From: Pirellulales bacterium | GTDB taxonomy: Bacteria > Planctomycetota > Planctomycetia > Pirellulales > JAICIG01 | DNA: 64,000 nucleotides | NCBI GenBank assembly: GCA_035547915.1 | Contig: DASZTS010000014.1 | Coordinates: 53,134 to 117,133, forward strand | Direction of reading: 5' to 3' | Part shown: positions 12,031 through 57,629 of the stretch, piece by piece | Position numbering within the stretch: the first letter of the stretch is position 1 | How the letters are laid out: every line of letters starts with the position of its first letter | Notes under the pieces: generated by a model | The model's input: the letters and a program-made list of their open reading frames with translations, nothing else | The model's database searches: none | Told to the model about the DNA's origin: nothing | Made by a program: the position numbers and the translations under genes

Positions 12031-12052
12031 TTTGGAGCCGGACGAACAACAA

Positions 12053-12212: not shown

Positions 12213-12247
12213 GTAGTACTGCCGATGTTTTTTTGTTCGTTCCTTAA

Positions 12248-31585: not shown

Positions 31586-31692
31586 AGGCACAGCGATCGC
31601 TGTTTGATTCCTTCCCCGACGCACACTCTTCCGCCACGGCTGCCCCGCCTGGGGCTTTCAATGACGGCACGCTAATCAGCCCGCCGGGCCGT

Positions 31693-31743
31693 GCAAGCGG
31701 AATTCCGGTTCCCCCTGAAGGTCTCCCCCAAAATTCCGCTGGC
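31693..31743 (+). promoter_or_regulatory. Conserved hairpin element, copy B
   Basis: Stem GCAAGCGGAATT / AATTCCGCTGGC with the same 27-nt loop as copy A. Lies 97 bp upstream of the GTG at 31840. Confidence 0.6.
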
Positions 31744-31839
31744 ACGGTCGCTGCGCGAGCGGAGCCCCGGACCGGGGCTGATTCTTCCGCGAGCCGTCAG
31801 GCCCCAGTTGCGGGGCCGGTAACTAGAGGAGACCGCGAC

Positions 31840-41043: not shown

Positions 41044-44000
41044 ACCTGAATAACTTTACCGAATCCGTTGTTGAGGAAGCAACACTCGCGTGGTTGGAAT
41101 CTCTTGGTTACTCCATCGCCCACGGCCCGGACCTGATCGAAACCGAGCGCGGCGGCGAATATGGCCGAGTCGTCCTCGAAGATCGCTTGCGCCAGGCGCT
41201 CCAGCGTCTTAACCCGAAACTGCCCGCAAGCGCTCTCGATGAAGCGTTCCGCAATCTGACGCGGCCTGACTCGCCCTCGCTAGTTGGCGGCAATCATGCC
41301 ATGCACCGGCTGCTGGTCGAGGGTGTGCCGGTGGAAGTGCAGCGCCCTGATGGCACCCTTGGCGGCGACATCGTGCGGGTTTTCGATTATGAGAATCCCA
41401 ACAACAACGACTTTCTTGCGGTGAACCAATTCACGATTGTGGAAAACAAGATTGAACGTCGGCCAGACGTTCTGCTGTTCATTAACGGCTTGCCGCTTGC
41501 TGTGATCGAATTGAAAAACGCTGCTGACGAGAACGCCACCCTTTGGAACGCCTTCAACCAGCTACAGACCTACAAGCAGCAAATCCCGTCCCTGTTCACC
41601 TGGAACGCAGCTCTGCTGGTCTCAGACGGCGTGCAAGCTCGCATCGGCACGCTGACGGCAGACCGCGAGCGGTTTATGCCGTGGAGGACTATCGCTGGCG
41701 AAGACTTGGCCCCGGCGTCGATGCCCGAACTGCAAGTGGTGTTGGAAGGCGTGTTCGAGAAGACGCGGTTTCTGCAACTGCTGCGGCACTTCATTGTGTT
41801 TGAGGACGAAGGCGGCGGTAAGCTCACCAAGAAAATGGCCGGCTATCACCAGTTCCATGCAGTGAACCTCGCCCTGGTAGCGACCATCAAAGCCACCGGT
41901 ATGGGCGGCGACCGTCGCGTCGGGGTGGTCTGGCATACTCAAGGTTCGGGCAAGAGCCTGACGATGGCGTTCTACGCCGGGCGGGTGGTTCTCGAACCGG
42001 CGATGAAGAATCCCACCATCGTCGTCATCACCGACCGCAACGACCTGGACGACCAGCTCTTCGGCACGTTCGCCCGTTGCAACGAACTCCTCCGGCAAAA
42101 GCCTGTGCAGGCCGAGAGCCGCGAGCAACTCCGCACTCTGCTGAAGACCGATTCGGGCGGCGTGATTTTCACCACCGTTCACAAGTTTTTTCCAACCGTT
42201 GAGGAAGCGAAGTTCCCGCTGCTGTCTGAACGGCGAAACATCGTCGTGATGGCGGATGAGGCTCATCGCAGCCAGTACGACTTCGTGGACGGTTTCGCGG
42301 CCCACATGCGGAACGCCTTGCCGGGAGCATCGTTTATCGGATTCACCGGAACGCCCATCGAACAGGCCGACGCCAACACGCGGGCCGTCTTTGGGAATTA
42401 TGTCAGCGTTTACGACATCGAGCGTGCCGTGAAAGACGGCGCAACGGTGCCGATCTACTACGAAAGCCGGCTTGCGAAGCTCAAACTCGACGAGTCGAAA
42501 AAGCCCAAGCTCGACGAGGAATTCGAGGAGGCGACCGAGGGTGAGGAAGAAAGCGCCAAAGCCAAACTGAAAACAAAATGGGCCGCCCTGGAATCCCTTG
42601 TCGGGGCGAAGGAACGCATCAAGCTGGTGGCAGCCGATATCGTGGCTCACTGGGAGAAACGGCTGGAGGCAATGGATGGAAAGGCGATGATCGTCTGCAT
42701 GAGCCGACGCATCTGCATTGATCTTTACAACGAGTTGGTCGCACTCCGCCCGGACTGGCACCACGGCGACGACGATAAGGGCGTGTTGAAGATCATCATG
42801 ACCGGCTCGGCGTCCGATCCTACCGAGTGGCAACCGCATATCCGCTCGAAGTCCCGCCGCGAGGAATTGGCAAAGCGGTTCAAGACCCCGCAAGACCCAT
42901 TCAAAGTGGTGATCGTCCGCGATATGTGGCTCACAGGCTTCGACGCTCCGTGCCTGCATACGATGTACGCCGATAAGCCAATGCGCGGACACGGTCTGAT
43001 GCAGGCCATCGCCCGCGTCAACCGCGTGTTCAAGGACAAGCCCGGCGGCCTGATCGTCGATTACCTCGGCCTTGCCCATGAACTGAAACAGGCGCTCGCC
43101 ACCTACACCGAAAGTGGCGGCCACGGGCAGACAGCGATTGACCAGGAGGAAGCCGTTGCGCTGATGCGCGAGAAACACGAAGTCTGTGCAGCCTTCTTCC
43201 ACGGTTTCGACTACTCAGGCTTTGCGGCCGGCAACGCCATGCAGAAACTCGGCATTCTGCCCGCAGCACAGGAACACATCCTGAAGCAGGAGGACGGCAA
43301 GAACCGTTTCGTTAAGGCGGTAGTCGAGTTATCCAAGGCATTCGCACTGGCGGTACCCGCCGACGACGCGATGGCCGTCGTGGACGACGTGGCGTTTTTC
43401 CAAGCGGTCAAATCCGTGTTGTCCAAGTCCATCGGCGACCAAATGCGCGACCCGGGCGACGTTGACCACGCGATCCGCCAGATCGTGTCGCGGGCCGTGT
43501 CGTCTGACGAAGTGATCGACATTTTCGCCGCAGCCGGGCTGAAGAAGCCGGACATTTCCGTCTTATCCGATGACTTCCTCGCCGAGGTGCGCGGGATGCC
43601 GCAACGGAATCTAGCCGTCGAAATGTTGCGAAAGCTGCTCCAAGGCGAGATCAAGCAGCGGTCGAAGAGAAACGTTGTTCAGGCCCGGTCGTTCCTAGAG
43701 ATGCTAGAGAAGTCCATCACCCGCTACCAGAACCGAGCCATCGAGACGGCGGCAGTGATCGAGGAATTGATCGGGCTGGCGAAGGACATGCGCGAGGCCC
43801 AGCAGCGCGGTGAACAACTCGGCCTAACCGACGACGAGATTGCGTTCTACGACGCCCTGGAAGTCAACGACAGTGCCGTGAAGGTACTCGGCGACGATGT
43901 GTTGAAACTGATCGCCCAGGATTTGGTGAAAGCGGTGCGGAACAACCTTACCATCGACTGGACTGTTCGGGAGAACGTGCGGGCTAACCTGCGTGTCATC

Positions 44001-44111
44001 ATCAAGCGGATTCTCCGCAAGCACGGCTACCCGCCGGACAAGCAGGAGAAAGCGACCAATACCGTGCTGGAGCAAGCCGAGGCCCTGTCGCGGGCCTGGG
44101 TCGATGTGTAA
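41040..44111 (+). CDS. hsdR: Type I restriction endonuclease subunit HsdR
   Basis: N-terminal nuclease domain, SF2 helicase motifs ([25 protein letters not shown]) and a C-terminal helical domain. Confidence 0.92.
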
Positions 44112-44590: not shown

Positions 44591-46555
44591 CTATTGAGTC
44601 TCCTTCATCGTGATCGAGTGCGCATCCAGGTCAACGATGAGACTGCCCGCACCGCGCCGTTTGATTTCCCTCCAAACAGCAAATCCCTCGATGATCGCCT
44701 GTTCCCACTCGCCTGGTGTACAGCAGGATACCTCCAGATGTGACGTCATGTTTTTAATCATCCGGAGGAGTTCGGCGCTCACGCTCGCCTTTCCCTCAAG
44801 CCAGTTGTAATCCTTGGCGTAGGCGAAAATCATGGCAGAAAGCCCTTCCTCCGTCGCGATGGCCCTGCCTCCATCCTCGACTTGATCCACAATTGGATTG
44901 CTCTTCCGTTTCTTCTTCAACATCCTCCGGGTCAGTGGAGACCAGCCAAGCACGGCGGCAAAGGAAAGATGCAGCACGTCATGGAAACCATAGCCATCTT
45001 TCTCGTAGGCGTTATCCGTGAGCGGGTCGCCAAATGGCTCGCCCTTGTAGAAGACCCGGACAACTTCCTTCTCGTCCTTGTCGTGGGTGGTTGCGAAGTC
45101 GATCACAAACCGACGCGGGAATCGTTCCCCCTCTGGGAAGCCTGCATCCAGCGGCTTGCGTTTCGGCAAAGCCCCCCAGCGCTGTTCGCACTTTGCGAGG
45201 TTCCGTTCGGCGACCTCTGCCAGATCAAGGCCGAACTTCGTAGCCAGATTTGACAAATACCAGAGCAGGTCGCCGAGTTCCTCCACAAAGCGATCTTGAA
45301 ACAATGTGTGGGATTCGCCATCGCGCAAGAACTTCTTGTACTCGGTGAGCAATTCACCTGCCTCGCCGGCAAGGCCAAGGAGCGGAATCATGACGCCCTT
45401 TTGATCGGAACCTGGATTCCGGTCGGTCTTCGCCGCTCGCTGTTGATATGCACGCAGGTCCATTTTTGTTCCTCCTGAAGTTGTGATCGTTGTAGCGTCA
45501 AGGCAGTGCGCTGCTACTGCCGCATTGAGGCCCCACTTCGGCGGATACCAATACGAGATCGGTTCAGGATTCGGCCTGAATCGTTGCTTGATGCGGGTTC
45601 GCCCGTTCTGGCCACTAAATTCGGGATGCCGGACGCGGGCGTATTTATCCACCTCACAGAAGAGGTTCTGGCAGTCAATAAGCTGGAGCCTTCGCCCCCA
45701 TAAACTTTGGAATTCAAGGCCCAAGCGAGCAAACTCAGCCTCCTGCCGATCCGCCATGAACCGGATGACTTCAGCATCGTTCAATCCTGCTGTGTCATGA
45801 AAGCACTTGCGAATGCCGTCCATAGCACCAGGCCCAGGAACGACAAACTCCATCTCTGAGAAGCTCGTAAGCGGGCTATAGTTCACATCCGTTGCGTACT
45901 GATATGCCAAGAAATCGCCGATGGTCGCATATCCGCGCAACAGGTCGAATGCGCGCTGCATATTTGGCGCGTCCTTCAAGCGGCGAGGCAAGCCATCGCT
46001 CAACATTGTCTCGATTAGGACAAGGTGATTGCGATGCTTCTTCACGTGACCGAAGGATTGTCCCGACGGCATGATGTAGGCAGCGGAGTATACTTTCGCA
46101 CCGCGAGACATGGCGCGCGTGAGAATCTGGTCGTAGCGCTTGAATGAGTAGTCCTCGTAAGTGACCTGCCCAAGGGATTGCTCCAAAAGCTCCCACGTCT
46201 CAATCCGATTGAACACCTTGAAAAGGATAAGACGGAAGAACACTTCCTGTGGGTCGCTCGGCAAGTCGTCACGATAGATGACTCGCCGGATAAGGTATTG
46301 GCTAACGCGATCCGAAGCGCGGTAAGCGTTCGTGAATTTGTGGGCAAGCAATACAGCGTCATCTGTCCAGGGTGGCAGTTCTTGCGCTAGGCGTTTGAAG
46401 AATATCCGCTGCCGTTCGGCGGCGAGCCGCCAGTACGTGTCAAAGACAGCCGTCGGCTTCAGCGGTGCAATACACGGCGGTGCATATTCGCCCTGTGGCG
46501 CTTGCTTCTGGGCGAAGAGTCCCGCCCCTGACCTACGTGCTGACTTCATGGGCAA
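44591..46555 (-). CDS. Multidomain protein: N-terminal ~370-aa domain of unknown function + MazG-like NTP pyrophosphohydrolase domain + C-terminal domain
   Basis: MazG all-alpha NTP-PPase signature (MIPLLGLAGEAGELLTEYKKF...EELGDLLWYLSNLATKFGLDLAEVAERNLAKCEQRW). The N-terminal region (FKRLAQELPPWTDDAVLLAHKFTNAYRASDRVSQYL) was not recognised. Overlaps the TS-like gene by 10 nt. Confidence 0.7.
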   Translation of the reverse strand: MPMKSARRSGAGLFAQKQAPQGEYAPPCIAPLKPTAVFDTYWRLAAERQRIFFKRLAQELPPWTDDAVLLAHKFTNAYRASDRVSQYLIRRVIYRDDLPSDPQEVFFRLILFKVFNRIETWELLEQSLGQVTYEDYSFKRYDQILTRAMSRGAKVYSAAYIMPSGQSFGHVKKHRNHLVLIETMLSDGLPRRLKDAPNMQRAFDLLRGYATIGDFLAYQYATDVNYSPLTSFSEMEFVVPGPGAMDGIRKCFHDTAGLNDAEVIRFMADRQEAEFARLGLEFQSLWGRRLQLIDCQNLFCEVDKYARVRHPEFSGQNGRTRIKQRFRPNPEPISYWYPPKWGLNAAVAAHCLDATTITTSGGTKMDLRAYQQRAAKTDRNPGSDQKGVMIPLLGLAGEAGELLTEYKKFLRDGESHTLFQDRFVEELGDLLWYLSNLATKFGLDLAEVAERNLAKCEQRWGALPKRKPLDAGFPEGERFPRRFVIDFATTHDKDEKEVVRVFYKGEPFGDPLTDNAYEKDGYGFHDVLHLSFAAVLGWSPLTRRMLKKKRKSNPIVDQVEDGGRAIATEEGLSAMIFAYAKDYNWLEGKASVSAELLRMIKNMTSHLEVSCCTPGEWEQAIIEGFAVWREIKRRGAGSLIVDLDAHSITMKETQ

Positions 46556-47412
46556 CCCTTCGCGCCGACGAGCGAGTCAACGTTTTCGGTCTCGATGCAC
46601 GCCCGCGACAGTGCCATCAGCCGGTCGAGGAGAACACCACGCTTCGGGCGCATCGCAGAGTCCATTTTCTGAATGCCCGTGTAACAACAGAGCTGACTGA
46701 AACGCAGGCCAGTTTGACTGGCGACGAACTCGCCAAGCCGGCACAATCCCAGCCAGTTTCCATATGCCTTCACGAACAACTGCTGAGTTGCATAGAAGGC
46801 GTTGAGTGCCAACGTCCCGTCGGTGAAATCGGGCACGAAAGTGATGTGCTGGAGGCACGGGAATCCTTGCTGCGCCGCGCCAGTCAGGTCGCGCACTGGG
46901 TCATAGACCGCAGCTTGAAGCATTGCTCGCCTTTTTCCCTTTTGGCAGTGCTCAATGATGAACTCGATTTGATTGCCGTCGCTGCTCCATGCAGTCGCGG
47001 GCAGGTGCTTTACACGCTGCCCTGTTCTTGGATCAGTCCCGAATGCGATCAACCGGGCGAAATACATCCCGTGTCCATTCTTGGATGGCTCCATCGTCAC
47101 GTAGTCGGGGAGGTAAGTGAGATAGTCCTTGTACAGTTTGTAGCGGTCGCCATTGGCACGCCGCCACAATGCCTGCGGGAAGATCGACTTCGCCACCTTC
47201 TCGACAAGCTGATGCCCGGCTTCGTCAAGGCAAGCGTCGAGCGCGGCACGCACGTCCTTATCCTCTGTGACAACGCCATCGGCGAAGCCGGTGACACTGA
47301 CCAGACATGGCGTCAGCTCGTGACCGCGCCGTGAAAGCGCTTCGAGGAAGCACCGTGACCAGGCCATTGAGAGACTCGGATCGCTGCTCGCGTACAGACC
47401 ATTCTTACTCAT
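46546..47412 (-). CDS. Divergent thymidylate synthase-fold protein (ThyA / dNMP hydroxymethylase family)
   Basis: GFPCLQHITFVPD...GTLALNAFYATQQLFVKAYGNWLGL aligns with the TS catalytic-Cys region (LPPCH..[33 protein letters not shown]). Confidence 0.5.
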   Translation of the reverse strand: MSKNGLYASSDPSLSMAWSRCFLEALSRRGHELTPCLVSVTGFADGVVTEDKDVRAALDACLDEAGHQLVEKVAKSIFPQALWRRANGDRYKLYKDYLTYLPDYVTMEPSKNGHGMYFARLIAFGTDPRTGQRVKHLPATAWSSDGNQIEFIIEHCQKGKRRAMLQAAVYDPVRDLTGAAQQGFPCLQHITFVPDFTDGTLALNAFYATQQLFVKAYGNWLGLCRLGEFVASQTGLRFSQLCCYTGIQKMDSAMRPKRGVLLDRLMALSRACIETENVDSLVGAKGCP

Positions 47413-48286
47413 CGTCGCCTTCCTCTCGTGCCAGGTGCCGATATTGACTCCAACCGGCGTACTGGTACGGCGATATCCGAACCACCACGGCCCATTGACC
47501 AGGGGCCTCGACTCGGCTCAAGCCAGCCCTTTCAGCTCTAAACAGTCGGCCTGCGGACAGATCGCCGATCGGTGTAAGGCAAGTGCGATACTCAGGTTCG
47601 CTGCCCGCAGGCAGCAACAGAAACGTGCCGACTTCGGCGTCAACTTGCGCCAAAGCATAATGTTGGTCGGCGACGATCAATCGTTCCGCCGCATCTGAAC
47701 CGAGTAGCGCACGGCGGATGGCGGGCAGCTTCGCGCGCCGCAGCTTTTCCGCCTGCCTTGTACCGATCTCGCCCAGACCATAAGCCAAGTGGCTCACTAT
47801 GGTCTCATATCCAACGCCGAAGTGGCACGCGACCACGTAAAGCTGCTCTGGCGAGGCCGCATTTAGAGACCACTTTCGGGCCGTAAACGCGCGCCGAACC
47901 CCGAGCTTCGGCATCAGGAGAAAGCCGGCGAACGCATTGACTAAAAACTCATTCGGGTCGGTGCGTGGATTGGCATGGCTGTCCTCTTGAAGCTCGTCGA
48001 TTGTGGAGCCGTGGCCGAACACATGATGCCCAAGTTCATGTGCACAGTTAAAGACCCGACGCGGTAGTGGGCGCAATGCCGAGACTTGGATCAAGGGGCG
48101 ACTTGACCGAAGGTAGCACCCTTCCATGTTGTAATCGACGAACAGCACACGTACCTTCGGTGAAAGCCGGTCGCATAGGTCGAAGACGTTCAAGGGCGTG
48201 CCGAAGTCGATTCCTGCACGCTCGCGGACCTCCAGCGCCATCTGCAATGCGTCCTGGGCCAGTGCGGTTCGGTCCACCACGGTCAC
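47405..48286 (-). CDS. ImmA/IrrE-family metallopeptidase (DUF955)
   Basis: HEXXH motif (CAHELGHHVFGH) in the ImmA-like context, directly downstream of the XRE repressor gene. Confidence 0.8.
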   Translation of the reverse strand: MTVVDRTALAQDALQMALEVRERAGIDFGTPLNVFDLCDRLSPKVRVLFVDYNMEGCYLRSSRPLIQVSALRPLPRRVFNCAHELGHHVFGHGSTIDELQEDSHANPRTDPNEFLVNAFAGFLLMPKLGVRRAFTARKWSLNAASPEQLYVVACHFGVGYETIVSHLAYGLGEIGTRQAEKLRRAKLPAIRRALLGSDAAERLIVADQHYALAQVDAEVGTFLLLPAGSEPEYRTCLTPIGDLSAGRLFRAERAGLSRVEAPGQWAVVVRISPYQYAGWSQYRHLAREEGDDE

Positions 48287-50690: not shown

Positions 50691-50765
50691 TGCGGTGGGA
50701 CCCGTGTTGGTACGGGTAGGCGGCTGTTAACCGCCCGGACGCAGGTTCGATTCCTGCCACCGCAG
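50691..50765 (+). tRNA. tRNA-Asn(GTT)
   Basis: U1:A72 acceptor TGCGGTG/CACCGCA, G73, anticodon arm GGCGG-CTGTTAA-CCGCC, T-arm GCAGG-TTCGATT-CCTGC. Confidence 0.8.
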
Positions 50766-50805
50766 CTTTTTTAAGCCTAATCTGGTTTTGTCGGTTGCTC
50801 TAAAT

Positions 50806-50877
50806 GTGCCCTTGGCCGAGCGGCAAAGGCTCCAGCCTTCCAAGCTGGCGAGGCGAGTTCGACTCTCGCAGGGCACT
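50806..50877 (+). tRNA. tRNA-Gly(TCC)
   Basis: Acceptor GTGCCCT/AGGGCAC, U73, anticodon arm CCAGC-CTTCCAA-GCTGG, T-arm GCGAG-TTCGACT-CTCGC. Confidence 0.8.
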
Positions 50878-50891
50878 CTGCATCGGATTGA

Positions 50892-50962
50892 TCGGGGATC
50901 GGCTAACGGTAGGCTGCCTGGCTTTGACCCAGGTGATGGAGGTTCAAGTCCTTCTCCCCGAA
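50892..50962 (+). tRNA. tRNA-Gln(TTG)
   Basis: U1:A72 acceptor TCGGGGA/TCCCCGA, anticodon arm CCTGG-CTTTGAC-CCAGG, T-arm GGAGG-TTCAAGT-CCTTC. Short D-arm. Confidence 0.65.
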
Positions 50963-50998
50963 CTTTGCTCGCGATGGTGTGTCTCAAGTAATACCCGA

Positions 50999-51072
50999 TC
51001 CGGGGCAGTCGCTGCTGGTAGCGATGCCTGGCTCTGAACCAGGAGGCGTTGGTTCGATTCCAACCCCCGGAA
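50999..51072 (+). tRNA. tRNA-Gln(CTG)
   Basis: Acceptor TCCGGGG/CCCCGGA, D-stem GTCGC/GCGAT, anticodon arm CCTGG-CTCTGAA-CCAGG, T-arm GTTGG-TTCGATT-CCAAC. Confidence 0.75.
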
Positions 51073-51121
51073 TTTTTATGGTCGAAAGAGATCTGCAACA
51101 AGTCGTGAACAACAGATAGAT

Positions 51122-51209
51122 GCGGAGGTCATCCGGCTGGATGAGGAACTTGTCTCGAAAACAAGTAGCGGCCCTGCCGCTTGTGAGTTCGAGTCTCACG
51201 GCCTCCGCC
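51122..51209 (+). tRNA. tRNA-Ser(CGA) (class II)
   Basis: Acceptor GCGGAGG/CCTCCGC, anticodon arm CTTGT-CTCGAAA-ACAAG, long variable arm GCGGCCCTGCCGC, T-arm GTGAG-TTCGAGT-CTCAC. Confidence 0.75.
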
Positions 51210-51322
51210 TTGAGTAAGAGCGGCTGATAGAAACCAAAAGCCCGAGCGCCATGGCAAAAATTGGCTGTGAAACGCCAATTTTTCGGCAGCTCGATCCAAT
51301 TTTGTCGGCTGCAATAAAACAC

Positions 51323-51395
51323 GGTCCCGTGGCCTAGCAGCGAAGGCAGCACCCTTACAAGGTGACGATCGACAGTGCGAGTCTGTCCGGGACTA
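51323..51395 (+). tRNA. tRNA-Val(TAC)
   Basis: Acceptor GGTCCCG/CGGGACT, anticodon arm GCACC-CTTACAA-GGTGA, T-arm GACAG-TGCGAGT-CTGTC (G55 in place of U). Confidence 0.65.
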
Positions 51396-51410
51396 CTTCA
51401 AACGCGAATC

Positions 51411-51484
51411 GCCTAGGTACGCCAACAGGCAGAGCGGCTTGGCTTAAACCCAAGTGTTTGCGGGTTCAACTCCCGCCCTGGGCA
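51411..51484 (+). tRNA. Class-I (short variable arm) tRNA with UAA anticodon (Leu anticodon, atypical)
   Basis: Acceptor GCCTAGG/CCTGGGC, anticodon arm CTTGG-CTTAAAC-CCAAG, T-arm GCGGG-TTCAACT-CCCGC. 74 nt with only a 5-nt variable loop. Confidence 0.55.
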
Positions 51485-51546
51485 CTCGTGAAGACAGCTT
51501 AGAGCAACCGGCAAGATCGGACGCCGGTCTTGTCAGCCGCTCTTAC

Positions 51547-51619
51547 GGCTCGGTAGGCAACGGCAGACCACCTTGGCTTAGAACCAGGGATGCTGTGGGT
51601 TCGAGTCCCACCTGAGCCA
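51547..51619 (+). tRNA. Class-I tRNA with UAG anticodon (Leu anticodon, atypical)
   Basis: Acceptor GGCTCGG/CTGAGCC, anticodon arm CTTGG-CTTAGAA-CCAGG, T-arm GTGGG-TTCGAGT-CCCAC. 6-nt variable loop. Confidence 0.55.
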
Positions 51620-51624
51620 TTCGC

Positions 51625-51742
51625 ATAAGAACGGCTGACGAAACCTGGAAGCCGGAGCGCGGCGGGCGAAAAATCGGTCGTGAAACGCCGAGTTTTTGAA
51701 ACATCGAGTCGGTTTCGTCAGTTGCTCGAAGAATTTCGTCCT
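51625..51742. repeat. Palindromic ~110-bp spacer element (TAGAGCGGCTGACAAAACCGG ... CCGGTTTTGTCGGTTGCTCTA family)
   Basis: Inverted terminal arms and internal hairpin ATCGGCCGTGAAACGCCGAT. Further copies at 52014-52108, 52352-52473, 52553-52660 and 55491-55600. Partial copies at 51497-51545, 52905-52950, 53290-53350 and 56451-56512. Confidence 0.75.
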
Positions 51743-51747
51743 CGTGG

Positions 51748-51822
51748 AGCAGCCTGGAGTGCTCGCCACCCTGTCAAGGTGGAGGTCGTGGGTTCAAATC
51801 CCATCGGGGACGCCTTTGAAAG
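51748..51822 (+). tRNA. tRNA-Asp(GTC)
   Basis: Acceptor GTCCTCG/CGGGGAC, G73, D-stem GAGC/GCTC, anticodon arm CCACC-CTGTCAA-GGTGG, T-arm GTGGG-TTCAAAT-CCCAT. Confidence 0.8.
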
Positions 51823-51835
51823 CACGGCGCGGTAC

Positions 51836-51913
51836 GCAAACGGGAAAAGCGGCCAAGCTCAAACCTTGGTGATTCTTTGTCGGTTCGACTCCGACCCGCG
51901 CCACTCGAACACG
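51836..51913 (+). tRNA. tRNA with CAA anticodon (Leu anticodon), 9-nt variable loop, atypical
   Basis: Acceptor GGCGCGG/CCGCGCC, anticodon arm CCAAG-CTCAAAC-CTTGG, T-arm GTCGG-TTCGACT-CCGAC. 78 nt, without the long class-II variable arm. Confidence 0.55.
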
Positions 51914-51931
51914 AACAACATGCGTCGGTTG

Positions 51932-52013
51932 GGCATTGGCAAGCTCCAGTGGCCGTAACCCACCCGCCTTCGGGCTCTGCAGGTTCGACTCCTGCCCGGC
52001 GCACTAAGAGCGG
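51932..52013 (+). tRNA. tRNA-Tyr(GTA) (class II), C33
   Basis: Acceptor GCGTCGG/CCGGCGC, A73, anticodon loop CCGTAAC, variable arm CCGCCTTCGGGCT, T-arm GCAGG-TTCGACT-CCTGC. Confidence 0.55.
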
Positions 52014-52117
52014 CTGACAAAATCGGGAAGCCGGAGTGCCGCGGGCGAAAAAATCGGCCGTGAAACGCCGGTTTTTGTGGCTCGATCCGGTTCTGTCGGT
52101 TGCTCTAGATACAACTT

Positions 52118-52188
52118 GGCCCGTTCGTCTATCGGTAGGACACGAGCCCCTCAAGCTCGGAAGGCGGGTTCGATTCCCGTGCGGGTCA
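52118..52188 (+). tRNA. tRNA-Glu(CTC), C33
   Basis: Acceptor GGCCCGT/GCGGGTC, D-arm of Glu type (TCGTCTATCGGTAGGAC), anticodon arm CGAGC-CCCTCAA-GCTCG, T-arm GCGGG-TTCGATT-CCCGT. Confidence 0.6.
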
Positions 52189-52192
52189 CTTC

Positions 52193-52276
52193 GGCCAAGT
52201 GGTGCAATTGGAAGACACACGACGCTCAGAACGTCGGCCCCTCGCGGGCGTGGGAGTTCGAGTCTCCCCTTGGTCA
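52193..52276 (+). tRNA. tRNA-Leu(CAG) (canonical class II)
   Basis: Acceptor GGCCAAG/CTTGGTC, anticodon arm CGACG-CTCAGAA-CGTCG, long variable arm GCCCCTCGCGGGCGT, T-arm GGGAG-TTCGAGT-CTCCC. Confidence 0.8.
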
Positions 52277-52282
52277 TTTCGA

Positions 52283-52351
52283 CGCAGGTGGGCCAGTGTC
52301 CAGCGAAGCCTCATAAGCTTCGCGCGCCGGGTGCGACTCCCGGACCTGCAA
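52283..52351 (+). tRNA. tRNA-Met(CAT), short (69 nt), initiator-like C1.A72 mismatch
   Basis: Anticodon arm (GC)GAAGC-CTCATAA-GCTTC(GC), T-arm CCGGG-TGCGACT-CCCGG, acceptor CGCAGGT/ACCTGCA with unpaired C1.A72 and A73. Reduced D-arm. Confidence 0.5.
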
Positions 52352-52476
52352 CTTTGGAGTTGCTCTTAGAGCGGCTGACAAAACCCGGAAGCCGGAGCGC
52401 CCGTGGGCGAAAAATCGGCCGTGAAACGCCGATTTTTGTGGAGCGAAGTCCGGTTTTGTCGGTTGCTCTTAGATGC

Positions 52477-52552
52477 GGCCGGGTACGCAAACCGGAAAAG
52501 CGGCGAGGTCGAGAGCCTCGTGACTCTGTGGGTTCGACCCCCACCTCGGCTA
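52477..52552 (+). tRNA. tRNA with GAG anticodon (Leu anticodon), 7-nt variable loop, C33, atypical
   Basis: Paralog of the CAA tRNA (same TA-CGC-AAACCGGAAAA-GCG D-arm). Anticodon arm CGAGG-TCGAGAG-CCTCG, T-arm GTGGG-TTCGACC-CCCAC. Confidence 0.5.
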
Positions 52553-52660
52553 CTAAGAGCGGTTGACAAAAGCTAGACGCCGGCGCGCCGCGGGCGAGAA
52601 ATCGGCCGCGAAACGCCGATCTTTGTGGAGCGCGATCTGGTTTTGTCGATTGCTCTAAAC

Positions 52661-52732
52661 GATCTCGTGGTCCAACGGCGACGACGCTTGGCTGACGTCC
52701 GGGAAACGATGGTTCAACTCCATCCGGGATCA
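52661..52732 (+). tRNA. tRNA-Val(GAC)
   Basis: Acceptor GATCTCG/CGGGATC, anticodon arm CTTGG-CTGACGT-CCGGG (two G.U pairs), T-arm GATGG-TTCAACT-CCATC. Confidence 0.55.
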
Positions 52733-52737
52733 CTCAT

Positions 52738-52808
52738 GGTCTGTAGGTGTTTCGGCAGCACACCGCCGTGGTAAGGCGGAAGACCCGGTTCAATTCCGGG
52801 ACGGACCT
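52738..52808 (+). tRNA. tRNA-Thr(GGT)
   Basis: Acceptor GGTCTGT/ACGGACC, anticodon arm CCGCC-GTGGTAA-GGCGG, T-arm CCCGG-TTCAATT-CCGGG. Confidence 0.75.
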
Positions 52809-52829
52809 CTGACACGACAAACACAACAC

Positions 52830-52901
52830 GGGCCTGCATGTCCCCGGAGGCGACTGACCCTTGCAAGGTCGGTGTGATGGGTTCGACCCCCATCAGGTCC
52901 A
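52830..52901 (+). tRNA. tRNA-Ala(TGC)
   Basis: G3.U70 identity pair, acceptor GGGCCTG/CAGGTCC, anticodon arm TGACC-CTTGCAA-GGTCG, T-arm ATGGG-TTCGACC-CCCAT. Confidence 0.8.
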
Positions 52902-52955
52902 CTTGTTAGAGGAACCGACAGAACCGGATCGAGCTTTCCTCGGATCGACTGATAT

Positions 52956-53026
52956 GGGCTGCTGGTCCAACGGGACGACGCCGGCTCCGCAGGCCGGAAA
53001 TCGGAGTTCGACTCTCCGGCGGTCCA
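52956..53026 (+). tRNA. tRNA-Ala(CGC), C33
   Basis: G3.U70 present. Anticodon arm CCGGC-TCCGCAG-GCCGG, T-arm CGGAG-TTCGACT-CTCCG. Confidence 0.6.
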
Positions 53027-53036
53027 CTGACAACGA

Positions 53037-53107
53037 GGGCTCATCGTCAAAAGGGAAGACGCCAGTCCGGCAGGCTGGAGATCTGGGTTCGATTCCCAGT
53101 GGGTCCA
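53037..53107 (+). tRNA. tRNA-Ala(GGC), C33
   Basis: G3.U70 present. Anticodon arm CCAGT-CCGGCAG-GCTGG, T-arm CTGGG-TTCGATT-CCCAG. Confidence 0.6.
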
Positions 53108-53124
53108 CTCAACCGAGGAGAAAG

Positions 53125-53211
53125 GGAAGGTAGGCGGATACGGCTTGCCGCGCCGCTTTGCTAAAGCGGTTCCCGGGACACGGGATGAGGGTTCGACTCC
53201 CTTGCCTTCCG
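53125..53211 (+). tRNA. tRNA-Ser(GCT) (class II)
   Basis: Acceptor GGAAGGT/GCCTTCC, G73, anticodon arm CCGCT-TTGCTAA-AGCGG, variable arm TCCCG-GGACA-CGGGA, T-arm GAGGG-TTCGACT-CCCTT. Confidence 0.75.
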
Positions 53212-53217
53212 CTCGTT

Positions 53218-53289
53218 GCCCCGATGGTGAAACGGACATCATCCCCTGCTTCTAACTGGGTGTTCCGGGTTCGAGTCCTGGTCGGGGTA
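53218..53289 (+). tRNA. tRNA-Arg(TCT)
   Basis: Acceptor GCCCCGA/TCGGGGT, anticodon arm CCCTG-CTTCTAA-CTGGG (one U.U mismatch), T-arm CCGGG-TTCGAGT-CCTGG. Confidence 0.5.
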
Positions 53290-53366
53290 CTGATAAGAGC
53301 AACCGAAAAGACCGGATTGCGCTCTCGGCTTCCGGTTCTTGCCGGCCACTGTAAGGAGGACCGTTT

Positions 53367-54170
53367 ATGACAACCGACATCGAGAGGCAATTCGCCAAGA
53401 TGGGTGCGCGGATCAAGCTGCACGAGCGCGAGCAGATCGGCAGCATGGCCGGCGTCTCGATCGACATCGGTCGCGACCGGTTGGGCGAGTTTTATGACGT
53501 CTCTGTGGACAACCGCGACGACAAGAACTTGTCGGTGCTCGACGTGCGACCCCGCATCCGGCACTTGCTGTTGTCGTACCATCGGCCGGCGGTGAACACC
53601 AACAGCCGGTTCCTGTGCGGTCACGACGAGCGGCATTGGTTCGTCGCGGCGATCCCCGAAACATCGGCGTCGTCGTCGGTGCGGACCGCCATGGAGTCGC
53701 TCAAGCCGATGGCCGTTCGCCGCCTGCAGGAGAGACTTCGCGTCAAGCCACAGAAGCGGAACCGCCGGCGCAACGCAGCGTTCGTCCGACAGGGCGAGTG
53801 GTTCTTCATCCGTATTGCTCCATCCGTCCGCATCGACGAGTGGATGGTTCTGCGGAACGAGCCATTGCGGCGTGGCAACGGCAAGCCGCATTTCGTCGAG
53901 GAGCTGATTCGCGTCGGCGGAGAAGCGGTCTATGTCAGCAACCAATACCCGCAGGGTCTCACGTTCCGCGAGTATCAGAAGCTGATCGGCCGCAAGCCGG
54001 AGCTACGGCACTTGCAATGGGTTGTGCAGCGGCGCAACCCGCAGGTTTTTGTACGGGGTAGGGTTCGCCATGCCGATCACAAGACGATTTTCTTGGACGG
54101 CTGGCACCAGGTACTGATGAACACCGAGACGCAGTCGCTCGCGATGCGTCATGTGGCGTTCATCGACTGA
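53367..54170 (+). CDS. Hypothetical protein (inside tRNA array)
   Basis: RBS AAGGAGG then ATG. 267-aa basic protein with no recognised motif. Confidence 0.5.
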   Translation: MTTDIERQFAKMGARIKLHEREQIGSMAGVSIDIGRDRLGEFYDVSVDNRDDKNLSVLDVRPRIRHLLLSYHRPAVNTNSRFLCGHDERHWFVAAIPETSASSSVRTAMESLKPMAVRRLQERLRVKPQKRNRRRNAAFVRQGEWFFIRIAPSVRIDEWMVLRNEPLRRGNGKPHFVEELIRVGGEAVYVSNQYPQGLTFREYQKLIGRKPELRHLQWVVQRRNPQVFVRGRVRHADHKTIFLDGWHQVLMNTETQSLAMRHVAFID

Positions 54171-54202
54171 GAGTCGGACGATAAAGAGAGCCGGACGATA
54201 AA

Positions 54203-54356
54203 TTCCCTCTCCCTCCGGGAGAGGGTTAGGGTGAGGGCCGATCGCGCGCTCCTGTGTTGTCGACTCTCTTCGGACGTGGCTGAGTTTTCGCTGAACAGGG
54301 GACCGACCCCATTAGTACTCTCAGCCGCCCTCACCCAACCCTCTCCCCGAGGAGAG
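54203..54356. repeat. ~160-bp palindromic element (CCCTCTCCC...GGGAGAGGG family), copy 2
   Basis: Near-identical to 12053-12212. Partial copies at 55112-55170 and 55320-55345. Confidence 0.8.
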
Positions 54357-54414
54357 GACGGAAGACTGCGGAAGTTATTCGATCGCGGGTTGGCGGAACC
54401 GTCGACCCGCATAC

Positions 54415-54490
54415 GGTGTCTGTGGTGTAGCGGTATTCTGCACGCCCGGCTGTGAACCGGATGGTATGGGTTCGACTCCCGTCAGACACC
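54415..54490 (+). tRNA. tRNA-His(GTG) with encoded G-1
   Basis: G-1 pairs with C73. Acceptor GTGTCTG/CAGACAC, anticodon arm CCCGG-CTGTGAA-CCGGA, T-arm ATGGG-TTCGACT-CCCGT. Followed by a CTTTTTTTG tract. Confidence 0.8.
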
Positions 54491-54517
54491 CTTTTTTTGA
54501 CAAGGAGGAATTTGGTC

Positions 54518-55111
54518 GTGGTTGCAAAGATGTTGAACAGACCGGCGCTGGTGCTCAACCGTAACTGGCAGCCGGTGAACGTCGCTACCGTCGCTCGCGC
54601 GCTGGTCATGCTCTTCAACGAGGCGGCCCGCGTCGTCGACCCGCACGACTACCAGCTCTACACCTGGACTGACTGGTCGCGGCTGGCTCCGCGCGACGGC
54701 GAGCCGTTCATCCGGGCGGTGAGCCTGCGGCTGCGCGTGCCGGAGGTGATCGTGCTGGCGGGTTACGATCGGCTGCCCGAGGCGGCCGTCTCGTTCAGCC
54801 GGCGCAACATCTTCAAGCGTGACCACTACACGTGCCAGTATTGCGGCGTGCAACCCGGCCTCGCGGAGTTGTCGATCGACCACGTCGTCCCGCGGTCGCA
54901 GGGCGGCACCTCGACCTGGGACAACTGCGTGCTGGCATGCGTGGACTGCAACAAGACGAAGGCCGACCGCACGCCCGCCGAGGCCGGCATGAAACTGCGC
55001 AAGCAGCCTTGCCGGCCACAATGGAAGCCACTCTACGCCGCGCACAACGTGCGCATCGAGAGCTGGTCGAAGTTCATCAGCGAAGCCTACTGGAGTGTCG
55101 AACTCCGCTAG
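54518..55111 (+). CDS. HNH endonuclease
   Basis: C-terminal HNH motif (DHVVPRSQGGTSTWDNCVLACVDCNKTKADRTP) and Cys-rich CQYCG. RBS AAGGAGG, then a GTG at 54518 or an ATG at 54530. Confidence 0.75.
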   Translation: MVAKMLNRPALVLNRNWQPVNVATVARALVMLFNEAARVVDPHDYQLYTWTDWSRLAPRDGEPFIRAVSLRLRVPEVIVLAGYDRLPEAAVSFSRRNIFKRDHYTCQYCGVQPGLAELSIDHVVPRSQGGTSTWDNCVLACVDCNKTKADRTPAEAGMKLRKQPCRPQWKPLYAAHNVRIESWSKFISEAYWSVELR

Positions 55112-55245
55112 ATCCCCTCTCCCTCTGGGAGAGGGTTAGGGTGAGGGCGGCTTGCATTACAAGCCGCGTCCAACCTGCCTCTCGCTGACAATAGTTTCTT
55201 CGTTCGTTTCCCGATCCAAGCTGGGGCAGCTTGGATCGGCCTTAT

Positions 55246-55315
55246 AGGATCGTGCTCCTGGGAGAGCACGCGGTCTCCAAAGCCGCTTCACGGGGTTCGA
55301 CTCCTCGCGATCCTG
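55246..55315 (+). tRNA. tRNA-Trp(CCA)
   Basis: A1:U72 acceptor AGGATCG/CGATCCT, G73, D-stem GCTC/GAGC, anticodon arm GCGGT-CTCCAAA-GCCGC, T-arm CGGGG-TTCGACT-CCTCG. Confidence 0.8.
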
Positions 55316-55414
55316 CTCGATCCCCTCTCCCTCCGGGAGAGGGCAAACAGGTCGATACCCGTGCCCAGTGACAACTACATAACACGCGAGTCATCGGCCT
55401 TACATGAACAACCT

Positions 55415-55486
55415 GTCCTGATGGTGTAACGGAACGCATTCGACCCTCCGAAGGTCGTGGTCCTGGTTCGAGTCCAGGTCGGGACA
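55415..55486 (+). tRNA. tRNA-Arg(CCG)
   Basis: Acceptor GTCCTGA/TCGGGAC, anticodon arm CGACC-CTCCGAA-GGTCG, T-arm CCTGG-TTCGAGT-CCAGG. T-tract follows. Confidence 0.8.
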
Positions 55487-55613
55487 TTTTTTAGATTACA
55501 GAGCAACCGACAAAACCGGATGCAGCTCCGACAAATCGGCGTTTCACGGCCGATTTTTCGCCCACCGCGCTCCTGCTTCCGAGTCTTGTCAGCCGCTCTG
55601 GCGATCCAACCTT

Positions 55614-55684
55614 GCCCTGCGAGTGTGATGGAAGCACGGCAGTCTTCGGAACTGCAAGACGGGGTCCGATTCCTCGGCGGGGTA
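55614..55684 (+). tRNA. tRNA-Arg(TCG)
   Basis: Acceptor GCCCTGC/GCGGGGT, anticodon arm GCAGT-CTTCGGA-ACTGC, T-arm CGGGG-TCCGATT-CCTCG. Confidence 0.7.
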
Positions 55685-55703
55685 CTGCTGCTCGAAAAAA
55701 CTT

Positions 55704-55777
55704 GTCCTCGGAGTGTGCCGGATTTCGCACGCGAGCCCGCGAAGCTCGTAGACCAGGTTCGATTCCTGGCGAGGACG
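55704..55777 (+). tRNA. tRNA-Arg(GCG), C33
   Basis: Perfect acceptor GTCCTCG/CGAGGAC, anticodon arm CGAGC-CCGCGAA-GCTCG, T-arm CCAGG-TTCGATT-CCTGG. Confidence 0.55.
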
Positions 55778-55788
55778 CTTGAACGATT

Positions 55789-55860
55789 GACGCTGGAGCC
55801 AGACGGCACGGCAACCGCCTGCAAAGCGGTTCGAAGCGGGTTCGACTCCCGCCGGCGTCT
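55789..55860 (+). tRNA. tRNA-Cys(GCA)
   Basis: Acceptor GACGCTG/CGGCGTC, U73, anticodon arm ACCGC-CTGCAAA-GCGGT, T-arm GCGGG-TTCGACT-CCCGC. Confidence 0.8.
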
Positions 55861-55868
55861 CTTGAAGA

Positions 55869-56033
55869 CAGGCATTGGGATGCCGACCAGGCCAGCGGCA
55901 CACCGACCCCGCGTAATGCGGTCGGCCGAGTGTGTTCCGTGCATGGGTTCTGACAACGGTCGGCATCACGTGGTAGCTCAAAGGTGAAAAACCCGAGAGT
56001 TGCGGGTTCGACTCCCGTCGAATGCACCACAGT
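55869..56033 (+). ncRNA. tRNA-like element: canonical T-arm + acceptor 3' strand with encoded CCA, but ~80 nt too long for a tRNA
   Basis: 3' end GCGGG-TTCGACT-CCCGT-CGAATGC-A-CCA (55995-56033). A possible 5' acceptor partner GCATTGG sits at 55870-55876. No canonical anticodon arm could be folded in between. Confidence 0.3.
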
Positions 56034-56528
56034 CGGCTCATAACCGACCGGGTGGAAAACACCCTCGCGAAAGCCCGAGGGAGGCGGACGTTTCGGCCGG
56101 TCAGCCCTAAACCGTACGGCGGGCGTTCGACGTGATGCGCTTCGGCACCGGACCGAAAGGTCGGTGTCCGGGGCCGTCGCCAGAACGGCGTTGACGGTTT
56201 TCGGCAGCATCACCAACTGCCATGTAGTGCGTGGATACCGCTTCTCGCGGGCGGTCGGCTACGGCGGCGAAGGCAGGCGAGCCGTGAAGGGCGTTGCCCG
56301 ACATGACAAGCCGATCCTTGCCGGCCAACGCCAGCAGTCCGTGGTTGCTCAAGCAGCACTCCGCGGACGGTGGTGTGACCGACGTTGCGTTCCGCCGCCC
56401 GACGGCGTTTTTTATTGCATACAATCCGGCCGCATGAGCGCGCCGGCGATCGTTAGAGCAAACGACAAGACCGGATCGAGCTCCGACTTCGCAGTCTTGT
56501 CCGCCGCTCTCAGGAAGGAAGGTGCAGC

Positions 56529-57629
56529 ATGTTGAAGACCGTGAAGATTGCCAGCTACGAAATGGGCCTCTACTTCCGCAACGGCGAATTCAAGGGCCTG
56601 CTCGCGCCGGGTCGGCACTGGTTCGTCGACCCGACGTTGAAGGCTCAGGTGCAGGTCGCGTCGCAGCGCGATCCGTGGATCGTCCACGACAAGCTCGACG
56701 TGATCGTCAAGTCGGGCGTGCTCAAGGACCGCGCCGTGGTGATCGACCTGAAGGACCATCAGCGGGCACTGGTCTGGATCGACGGCCGCTTCAGCCACGT
56801 GCTGCCGCCCGGCCTGTACGCCTACTGGACCGGCTTCCGCGACGTGAAGGTGGAGACCGTCGATGCGCGGCGCGTGCGCTTCGTGCACAAGGATCTGCAC
56901 GTCATCACTCGCTCGGCCCTGGCCGACCGGGTGCTGGAGGTTTTGGCGGTCGAGCAGGGCCACGTGGGCGTGCTCTACGTGGACGGTACTTACGTCGAGA
57001 CGTTGCCTGCGGGCCGCCACGCCTTCTGGAAGAACGTGGCCAAGGTCACGCTCGTGCCGGTGGACCTGCGCGAGGCGATGTACGACGTCGCCGGCCAGGA
57101 GATCATGACGGCCGACAAGGTGACGCTGCGCCTCAACGCCGTGGTAACCTACCGGGTGACCGACGCGTTGAAGGTCGTCAGCATCACCGACGACGCTCGG
57201 CAGGCCCTGTACCGCGAGGCGCAGTTGGCCCTGCGGGCGGTGATCGGTGCCCGCGAGCTCGACAGCTTCTTGACCGCCAAGGATGGCGTGGCCGGCGAGC
57301 TGGAAGAGTTGCTGCGCCCCCGGGCGATCACGCTCGGCTTCGAGTTGATCGCCGTGGGCGTCCGCGACGTGATCCTGCCGGGCGAGATGAAGACGCTGCT
57401 CAACCGGGTGACCGAGGCCAAGAAGGCCGCCGAGGCCAACCTGATCGTGCGGCGTGAAGAGACGGCGGCCATGCGCAGCCAGGCGAACACCGCCAAGCTG
57501 CTCGAGGATAACCCCACCCTCATGCGCCTGCGTGAGCTGGAGATCCTCGAAAAGGTCGCCGCCGGCAGCAAGCTGAACGTCGTGCTCGGCGAGAAGGGAT
57601 TGGCCGAGCGGATTGTGAATCTGCTGTAG
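56529..57629 (+). CDS. SPFH/band-7 domain protein
   Basis: SPFH core (…LRLNAVVTYRVTDALKVV…) and coiled-coil C-terminus (EAKKAAEANLIVRREETAAMRSQANTAKLL). Confidence 0.75.
   Translation: MLKTVKIASYEMGLYFRNGEFKGLLAPGRHWFVDPTLKAQVQVASQRDPWIVHDKLDVIVKSGVLKDRAVVIDLKDHQRALVWIDGRFSHVLPPGLYAYWTGFRDVKVETVDARRVRFVHKDLHVITRSALADRVLEVLAVEQGHVGVLYVDGTYVETLPAGRHAFWKNVAKVTLVPVDLREAMYDVAGQEIMTADKVTLRLNAVVTYRVTDALKVVSITDDARQALYREAQLALRAVIGARELDSFLTAKDGVAGELEELLRPRAITLGFELIAVGVRDVILPGEMKTLLNRVTEAKKAAEANLIVRREETAAMRSQANTAKLLEDNPTLMRLRELEILEKVAAGSKLNVVLGEKGLAERIVNLL

Follow-up and report, generated by a model that had tools for sequence, protein, structure and literature searches.

A tRNA-like 3′ end beside a tRNA array of a Pirellulales bacterium is very probably a decayed domain of a conserved, structured RNA of about 540 nt

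The tRNA-like 3′ end that lies just beyond the last tRNA gene of an array in a Pirellulales bacterium can be identified, with high confidence, as the decayed Domain II of a conserved RNA of about 540 nt. The window analyzed was the whole stretch of 64,000 nt taken from contig DASZTS010000014.1, and all positions are given in its numbering. The complete RNA occupies positions 55872–56413 of the + strand and, according to alignments A1 to A5, consists of Domain I, the remnant of Domain II and a Domain III that runs to a U-tract. The helices of this RNA are supported by covariation and, judging from the sequences compared, it appears to be specific to the Planctomycetota, single-copy, chromosomal and syntenic across the phylum.

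Positions 56002–56029 of the + strand read GCGGG-TTCGACT-CCCGT-CGAATGC-A-CCA, that is, an intact T-arm (56002–56018, GCGGG-TTCGACT-CCCGT) followed, at 56019–56029, by the former 3′ strand of an acceptor stem, CGAATGC (56019–56025), an A (56026) and CCA (56027–56029). A previous sequence-only reading of this DNA had described the same T-arm, tail, A and CCA, which were read directly at these positions, and had placed the end at 56033, 4 nt beyond the true end at 56029. The 23-mer that covers the T-arm and the tail is present in a single copy in the 64-kb window even when up to 3 mismatches are allowed (0 expected), in agreement with the claim that no intact tRNA of the window carries these 3′ letters. 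ARAGORN called neither a tRNA nor a permuted or intron-containing tRNA at the element, and no tmRNA in the window. The Rfam tRNA model (RF00005) gave no match to the element at the gathering threshold or at E≤10; a normal tRNA was thus found by neither program within 55960–56033, and the element keeps its orphan status. The tRNA, tmRNA and intron covariance models gave no significant match at the element either, and the earlier statement that no anticodon arm could be folded agrees with the fact that the cloverleaf cannot form and that the tRNA models are silent.

The window contains 38 tRNAs according to ARAGORN, all on the + strand and arranged in two arrays (11097–12322 and 50691–55861), the last real tRNA being a tRNA-Cys(GCA) at 55789–55861 on the + strand (ARAGORN; 48.8 bits with the Rfam tRNA model). 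The encoded CCA at 56027–56029 is a genuine oddity for the window, since none of these 38 genes encodes a CCA and each has a T next.

The origin of the fragment became clear from its relatives. The stretch at 55968–56001 of the + strand, directly 5′ of the T-arm, is what is left of the acceptor strand on the 5′ side, of the D-stem's 5′ half and of the anticodon arm, with 14 nt deleted in comparison with all relatives (alignments A1 and A4). The window was aligned base for base to six homologous loci (L001, L002, L004, L246, L247 and L248), except for this 14-nt gap and the altered acceptor strands, and the cloverleaf was complete in all of its four closest relatives (L001, L246, L247 and L248; slipin 90–92% identical). 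The deletion takes away the 3′ half of the D-stem and the 5′ half of the anticodon stem, and both acceptor strands are changed, in the window copy only. The relatives have the whole cloverleaf and the window lacks an internal piece of it; the fragment therefore arose by decay in place. The window additionally lacks about 28 nt between tRNA-Cys and helix P1 with respect to the four closest relatives. At the position of the tail in the window, the closest relatives read CCATGCG-ACA, CCATGCG-ACAA or CCATGCG-TACC; therefore, the CCA is not conserved. No elbow can be formed by the window copy, as the D loop is missing.

The rest of the family features were found in the window between 55879 and 56413, namely helix P1, the CCAGCGG / GTTCCGTGMATGGGTTCKGA core, blocks C, D and E, helix P6 and the U-tract, with a slipin gene downstream, and only the cloverleaf was defective. 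Domains I and III retain every invariant position, which suggests that the RNA of the window, taken as a whole, probably still functions. Either the RNA can do without Domain II or decay of the window copy is setting in.

The stretch corresponding to 55968–56029 forms a complete cloverleaf in every relative, scoring 42–66 bits with the Rfam tRNA model. In all 24 sequences of alignment A2 the T-loop was invariant, as were three pairs of the five-pair T-stem, and the other two pairs varied yet stayed paired. The D stem and loop were also invariant among the relatives, and the anticodon, T and acceptor-proximal stems covaried. By contrast with such a conserved body, the anticodon is free to change even among close relatives, in which GAA, GAG, UGG, AUG, CAG, CAC and GAU were all observed on one body. 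Of the anticodon loops that were scored, roughly 40% had no U33, and some loops measured 6 or 9 nt. The number of contiguous pairs in the acceptor stem ranges from 3, as in the L082 type, to 6, as in the L036 type with its encoded CCA, and reaches 7/7 in no relative; a CCA at positions 74–76 is present in about a third of the members. Given the free anticodon loop, the acceptor stem of 3–6 bp and the lack of a conserved CCA, Domain II of the relatives does not look like a decoding tRNA. This accounts, in genome annotation, for tRNA calls with a changing anticodon just 5′ of slipin in Planctomycetota: they belong to a longer RNA and are not to be counted as decoders.

Sequence conservation in the relatives starts just 5′ of helix P1, where the window has its deletion and a diverged flank, and stops at the U-tract. 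The 5′ strand of P1, GATGCCGACC (55879–55888, +), forms a duplex with its 3′ strand, GGTCGGCATC (55958–55967, +). P1 measures 10–16 bp, has unrelated sequences in different clades and was seen in every homologue that includes the 5′ strand. P1 encloses the remainder of Domain I (55892–55953, +; RNAalifold and pair counts, A2), a long hairpin with a conserved core and a variable distal stem, whose base is formed by CCAGCGG (55892–98) and the CCGT..TGG contained in TTCCGTGCATGGGTTCTGA (55935–53). In the relatives this hairpin base, CCAGCGG with CCGU-GMA-UGG, and the GUUCUGA that follows are almost invariant, about 27 bases of the long hairpin being near-invariant, and the distal stems covary. 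In alignment A2, 95.1% of the cells of Domains I and II were paired, compared with 29–46% in slid controls, and 15 pairs showed double changes. The covariation score of the two domains was 0.328, versus at most 0.094 in the controls, and was reached by 0 of 500 shuffles.

Two small hairpins follow the tRNA-like element on the + strand. The first one (56032–56048, GTCGG-CTCATAA-CCGAC) has a 7-nt loop and a stem in which at least three Watson-Crick pair types were recorded; the second one (56050–56064, GGGTG-GAAAA-CACCC) is a GNRA tetraloop hairpin in most relatives. A kissing contact of the anticodon loop with the 7-nt loop of the first of these hairpins was also considered, and was discarded when no complementarity was seen by inspection. 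Block C, GCCCGAGGGAGGCGGACGT (56073–56091, +), is the 5′ strand of a long-range helix, P6. Helix P7 pairs 56104–13 with 56196–205 and encloses a variable hairpin region (56104–56205, +; RNAalifold, A3); between 5 and 7 sequences of A3 carried compensatory changes at several of its pairs, and L075 and L058 lack the enclosed region. Block D, CGGCAGCATCACCAACTGCCATGTAGTGCGTGGATACCGC (56202–56241, +), is conserved phylum-wide, and its AGUGC(G) pairs with the (C)GCACU of block E, GCTCAAGCAGCACTCCGCGGACGGTGGTGTGACCGACG (56347–56384, +), with the compensatory combination AGCGC(G)/(C)GCGCU in L058 and L254.

Helix P6 closes Domain III by pairing block C with 56382–56406, in the last 25 nt or so before the U-tract. 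Its 3′ strand is composed of ACG (56382–84) and TCCGCCGCCCGACGGC (56391–406), after which six T residues follow (56408–13), the whole spanning 56382–56413 on the + strand. In alignment A5, 88.9% of P6 was paired, compared with 43–55% in slid controls; AU, UA, GC and CG were all observed at one pair, 3 pairs showed double changes, and the covariation score was reached by 5 of 500 shuffles, the power being modest with about 30 sequences. A terminator scan detected a local hairpin at 56393–56407 followed by the T6 at 56408–13. The 5′ half and the loop of this hairpin share letters with the 3′ strand of P6, so that the two structures are mutually exclusive. A T-run was found at the matching place in most relatives, and one clade (L008, L036, L057 and L190) is without a clear U-tract.

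An unsupervised search for covarying columns on the full-length alignment was noisy as a consequence of repeated GUGYG motifs, and only helices that were separately confirmed were counted. A protein-coding reading of 56034–56528 was examined on both strands and rejected, as the relatives do not share the candidate ATG and indels between close relatives break the frame. With indels not divisible by three and no conserved start codon, the region is non-coding. When the window, L004 and 18 homologous loci were compared with Rfam 15, no significant family match other than tRNA was obtained (gathering threshold; E≤10 on the full RNA).

Genome and metagenome contigs were scanned with the 17-mer CCGTGMATGGGTTCKGA, which listed at least about 240 loci, mostly chance matches. 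A filter for flanking motifs applied to the listed matches yielded at least 23 new true homologues, beyond the four loci already in the set. The family sample amounts to at least about 30 Planctomycetota sequences and under-samples the range of organisms; the members obtained from the scan are metagenome-assembled genomes labelled Planctomycetaceae, Pirellulales or Planctomycetota, together with metagenomes. A BLAST of 55600–56300 against phage GenBank gave no match, and neither did the Domain I core pattern against the viral contigs of IMG/VR; the block D pattern retrieved from IMG/VR one contig labelled as viral, L249, which carries the RNA.

The spacer between tRNA-Cys and the RNA, which contains no terminator, measures 10 nt in the window and 10–20 nt in the set formed by the window, L057 and L190. 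Among the matches listed, tRNA-Cys stands 5′ of the RNA in roughly 20 of about 30 homologous loci. On the other side, 115 nt separate the end of the U-tract from the start of a slipin (SPFH/Band_7) gene in the window (56529–57629, +; Pfam Band_7, 6e-32), whose closest database relatives come from Pirellulales, Thermoguttaceae and other Planctomycetota. A slipin gene was found downstream on the same strand in 20 of the 23 pattern-selected homologues with enough downstream sequence, among the matches listed; the three exceptions have lost the 3′ part of the RNA, and every intact copy precedes slipin. Moreover, when loci were picked via slipin alone, the RNA was present in all of the nine with enough upstream sequence, and the layout was the same in the nine: the tRNA or tRNAs, of which the last is tRNA-Cys, are followed by about 600 nt in which no gene was called, and then by slipin.

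These observations are best accounted for, in our opinion and with somewhat better than even confidence, by a stable non-coding RNA derived from the tRNA operon transcript, in which the tRNA-like part would serve as an architectural or recognition module. The RNA would be transcribed from the + strand as the last unit of the tRNA operon, ending at the U-tract, and would then be cut from the operon transcript to give the stable molecule, with the transcript ends placed by inference. The tRNA-shaped domain may act as an L-shaped connector that joins two functional domains, and either a different region of the RNA or machinery that binds tRNAs, RNase P for example, may recognize its elbow. In the genome of the window the module would be dispensable, or would have been replaced by a new GCATTGG/CGAATGC pairing. 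A variant in which the module is a processing handle is weak, because a short acceptor, mostly without CCA, makes a poor substrate for RNase P or RNase Z.

The new pairing just mentioned involves GCATTGG (55872–55878, +), a distal strand that abuts P1 and pairs 6/7 with 56019–56025. The sequence-only reading had considered it the sole complementary 5′ strand; however, 14 7-mers pair with CGAATGC at ≥6/7 within 55600–56500, compared with about 6.3 per 900 nt in shuffled sequences. Within the 300 nt upstream of the element about 2 sites at ≥6/7 are expected by chance, the probability of at least one being 0.87, and the GCATTGG/CGAATGC match is not statistically significant. Relatives read CGCAAC at the position of GCATTGG, which pairs with the 5′ acceptor strand and lengthens P1. 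In the clade of the window, three segments can be defined, X (CGCAAC, just 5′ of P1), Y (GYTGTGG, the 5′ acceptor strand) and Z (CCATGCG, the 3′ acceptor strand), with X-Y, Y-Z and, weakly, X-Z as alternative pairings. In the window Y is destroyed, and X (GCATTGG) pairs 6/7 with Z (CGAATGC). This X-Z helix would close Domain I beside the T-arm and end in ACCA, and it may either have come about by chance during the decay or be a new, compensating helix.

Among known RNAs, GOLLD and ROOL are the closest in layout, a resemblance by analogy that is not evidence of homology. Both are large, multi-domain, highly structured bacterial RNAs found beside tRNA islands and probably co-transcribed with them, and GOLLD has a 5′ and a 3′ region connected by a linker in which a tRNA is sometimes present (PMC12286853, PMC5737381). 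Similarly, the RNA described here adjoins tRNA-Cys and tRNA arrays and has a tRNA-derived unit between its 5′ and 3′ domains. Unlike these RNAs, it gave no covariance-model match to either of them (window and 18 loci at the gathering threshold, or full RNA at E≤10), and it is single-copy, chromosomal and syntenic, whereas they are phage-borne, a viral label having been seen here only on contig L249. In contrast to GOLLD, the 5′ domain is its most conserved part, and the embedded tRNA does not appear to be a decoder.

A tRNA-shaped module inside a longer non-coding RNA is also known from the bacterial Y RNA YrlA and from the mascRNA of MALAT1, where it is recognized by tRNA-binding or tRNA-processing factors and is not used for decoding. 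The present RNA shares this arrangement, but its anticodon arm is retained and the module is located between two large domains. Additionally, no Ro/Rsr gene is found nearby, and L004 scored only 16 bits with the YrlA model, whose threshold is 69.

The same locus can be explained in a different way, the main rival, which we regard as unlikely: the RNA of about 540 nt would be a cis-acting leader of the slipin mRNA, similar to an attenuator or a riboswitch, in which competition between Domain III, closed by P6, and the terminator hairpin sets read-through into slipin and the tRNA-like domain is one part. The constant position of slipin downstream, with the 3′ part of the RNA lost in the three exceptions, and the presence of the RNA at 9 of 9 slipin-selected loci favor such a leader. 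So do the distance from the T-run to the slipin start codon, which is only 30 nt in L143 and L058, and, in L143 and L200, a promoter-like GAAC-N15-CGTC motif located 5′ of the RNA instead of in the interval that separates it from slipin. The overlap of the 3′ strand of P6 with the 5′ half and the loop of the terminator hairpin points in the same direction. On the other hand, a motif of this kind (GAAC-N15-17-CGTC), which we take to resemble an ECF sigma promoter, lies between the U-tract and slipin, after the terminator of the RNA, in the clade of L082, L159, L140, L253 and L254, and insertions of 0.5–2.4 kb between the RNA and slipin are tolerated in L001, L036, L190 and L008, where the RNA is kept. 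Furthermore, the fusion to tRNA-Cys at 10–20 nt implies constitutive high transcription, P6 itself reaches the U-tract, so that either conformation could terminate, and the clade of L008, L036, L057 and L190 is devoid of a clear U-tract. The size of the RNA is also above that of the known bacterial cis-regulators, which to our knowledge measure about 200–300 nt, as in T-box and cobalamin leaders.

Several of these features bear directly on the stable-RNA reading. The promoter-like motif after the U-tract in five relatives and the tolerated insertions of 0.5–2.4 kb speak for it; the presence of slipin behind every intact copy and the gap of 30 nt between T-run and start codon in L143 and L058 fit a cis leader better, and the mutual exclusion of P6 and the terminator hairpin, as in attenuators, also speaks against it.

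With respect to T-boxes, the likeness consists of a long structured RNA 5′ of a gene with mutually exclusive helices at the terminator. The GUGGAUACCGC of block D presumably resembles the T-box core, which we take to be GGUGGUACCGCG. Block D was nevertheless rejected as a T-box, as the UGG that would pair with the CCA of a tRNA varies in other clades (CAGA, CGGA, AGGA and UAGA). The RNA also differs from T-boxes in having no Rfam T-box match and in that the downstream gene does not belong to amino-acid metabolism.

It is very unlikely that the element is an ordinary tRNA pseudogene, that is, the last gene of the array in a state of decay, flanked by functionless spacer or UTR sequence that happens to be conserved. 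The deletion and the mutated acceptor stem of the window copy, as well as the free drift of the anticodon loops in the relatives, would fit a pseudogene. However, lineages whose slipins are only 56–70% identical to that of the window have kept the stems of the cloverleaf, with compensatory changes, together with its D and T loops, as a pseudogene would not, and the flanking Domains I and III hold near-invariant blocks and covarying long-range helices. A pseudogene is therefore largely refuted by covariation.

A two-piece (circularly permuted) tmRNA, with an acceptor piece ending at the CCA of 56029 and a coding piece starting with GCGTTCG at 56123, is highly improbable. The likeness to tmRNA lies in a T-arm and acceptor end placed on a large non-tRNA body and, in the window, in the discriminator A, the encoded CCA and a possible G3-U70. 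GCGTTCG pairs 7/7 with CGAATGC, including one G-U that would fall at 3:70, and the Rfam tmRNA_permuted model gave a weak match at 56002–56130 (12.2 bits, E=3.1). This score is at chance level against a gathering threshold of 47, and ARAGORN called no tmRNA. GCGTTCG sits in the variable insert of P7 and is not conserved; L001, L002, L004 and L233 lack it or carry another sequence there, and L075 has lost the region. The possible G3-U70 thus concerns the window only, and a permuted tRNA, as proposed in the sequence-only reading, or a tmRNA has its only downstream partner in this variable region. Moreover, the relatives have full cloverleafs that include D and anticodon arms, which we know from no tmRNA, and no conserved G3-U70. 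The candidate stop TAG of block D is CAG or AAG in other members, no conserved reading frame for a tag was found among the family members compared, and the tmRNA models were not matched. The tmRNA explanation is refuted for the family.

An integration scar, with an att site formed by duplication of the 3′ fragment of a tRNA ending in GCGGGTTCGACTCCCGTCGAATGCACCA / CGAATGCACCA, can be dismissed almost entirely, and so can a permuted tRNA or one with an intron. A tRNA 3′ end without its 5′ half at the edge of a tRNA array and a 38-kb island with a serine recombinase in the window would suit a scar. Island and recombinase, however, lie within the other part of the array, at a distance of 43 kb, and no integrase is near the element; no second copy exists in the window at ≤3 mismatches, and what is missing is an internal piece of the D and anticodon arms, 14 nt deleted in place inside a conserved RNA at a position orthologous in all relatives. 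As for the second possibility, no intron family matched, ARAGORN found no permuted or intron-containing tRNA, and what separates GCATTGG from CGAATGC, over 140 nt, is the conserved Domain I instead of D and anticodon arms plus an intron. Of the three explanations put forward from the sequence alone, the att scar and the intron-containing or permuted tRNA are thus abandoned, and the tRNA-like structured RNA was right in spirit, the structure being far larger than supposed.

Returning to the stable non-coding RNA, a search of the literature for a described Planctomycetes RNA of this kind found none, and the family of about 540 nt is apparently undescribed. Large, highly structured bacterial RNAs are rare, and those known to us are the ribosomal RNAs, RNase P RNA, tmRNA, OLE, GOLLD, ROOL and raiA, each of which has brought new insight into the biology of RNA. 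We tentatively put forward, at somewhat less than even confidence, that a new class is represented here: a large, phylum-wide RNA of Planctomycetota, built around a tRNA-derived four-way junction that would be read by tRNA-recognizing machinery and coupled to the tRNA operon and slipin, which in this genome may have been remodelled to a tmRNA-like topology by the GCATTGG/CGAATGC helix and the encoded ACCA.

The RNA described here is conserved across the Planctomycetota, has a fossil tRNA as a building block and sits where a tRNA operon meets a membrane-scaffold gene. Should its nature as a stable RNA be confirmed, it would offer a tractable new case for studying why tRNA islands attract large ornate RNAs and how the shape of tRNA is re-used.

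None of the 38 tRNA genes identified in the window carries an encoded CCA, and a T lies immediately 3' of every one of them. The genes are tightly spaced, with gaps that are frequently just 4–20 nt. The first array also includes a tRNA-Ile with the anticodon TAT (UAU) at 11627–11699, called by ARAGORN and adjoining tRNA-Ile(GAT); this pair was also observed in L001, one of the loci of relatives that carry a homologue of the large RNA. Some ARAGORN calls in the relatives' arrays were too long or otherwise unusual: a 97-nt tRNA with a four-base anticodon (cggg) in the related locus L004 (1359–1455), and, in L001, a tRNA-Pro(ggg) of 95 nt (8289–8383) together with a tRNA-Val of 85 nt (7700–7784).

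The tRNA array of the window is divided by an insertion of approximately 38 kb (interval 12248–50766), flanked on the left by tRNA-Pro(cgg) (12248–12322) and on the right by tRNA-Asn (50691–50766). When L001 was compared, the distance from Pro(cgg) to the next tRNA was 5 nt or less. The insertion contains genes for a large serine recombinase (12303–13793, minus strand), a methylase/SNF2-helicase fusion of 1949 aa (31162–37011), a type I restriction R subunit (41040–44111), a fusion of 5-hmdU DNA kinase and MazG (44591–46555, minus strand) and an IrrE-like peptidase (47405–48286, minus strand).

An HNH endonuclease ORF was also detected within the window array (54452–55111), flanked by tRNA-His and tRNA-Trp, and an HNH ORF is likewise flanked by these two tRNAs in L004 (3149–3742). 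At two other relatives' loci, L246 (459–1049) and L254 (645–1241), such an ORF is located upstream of the slipin gene.

Additionally, the space between the terminator of the large RNA and slipin is occupied by insertions at some loci. In L001 a palindromic repeat some 25 nt long, similar to CCATCCGCCTTGTGCGGATGG, is inserted there in several copies (9720–9970), and the insertion in L233 includes a borderline match to the Rfam family Acido-Lenti-1 (6084–6129; 37.4 bits, the threshold being 37). On the other side of the RNA, in the single lineage represented by L253, tRNA-Cys and the large RNA are immediately preceded by an RtcB RNA-ligase gene (548–1699). In Salmonella, RtcB adjoins the tRNA-like Y RNAs; the proximity seen in L253 could be coincidental or meaningful.

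The large RNA was also found on a 94-kb contig classified as viral by IMG/VR (L249, IMGVR_UViG_3300007072_000340), where it again stands between a tRNA array and slipin, as at the other loci. This contig is either a chromosome fragment wrongly classed as viral or a prophage-borne copy of the locus.

Moreover, a GAAC(C/T)-N15-17-CGTC motif, frequently preceded by TGT or GT and similar to an ECF sigma promoter, recurs among the relatives' loci. It was located upstream of slipin and after the terminator of the RNA in L082, L159, L140, L253 and L254, and upstream of the large RNA itself in L143 and L200. The recurrence of this ECF-like motif points to membership of slipin in a stress regulon, which in certain lineages would include the large RNA too.
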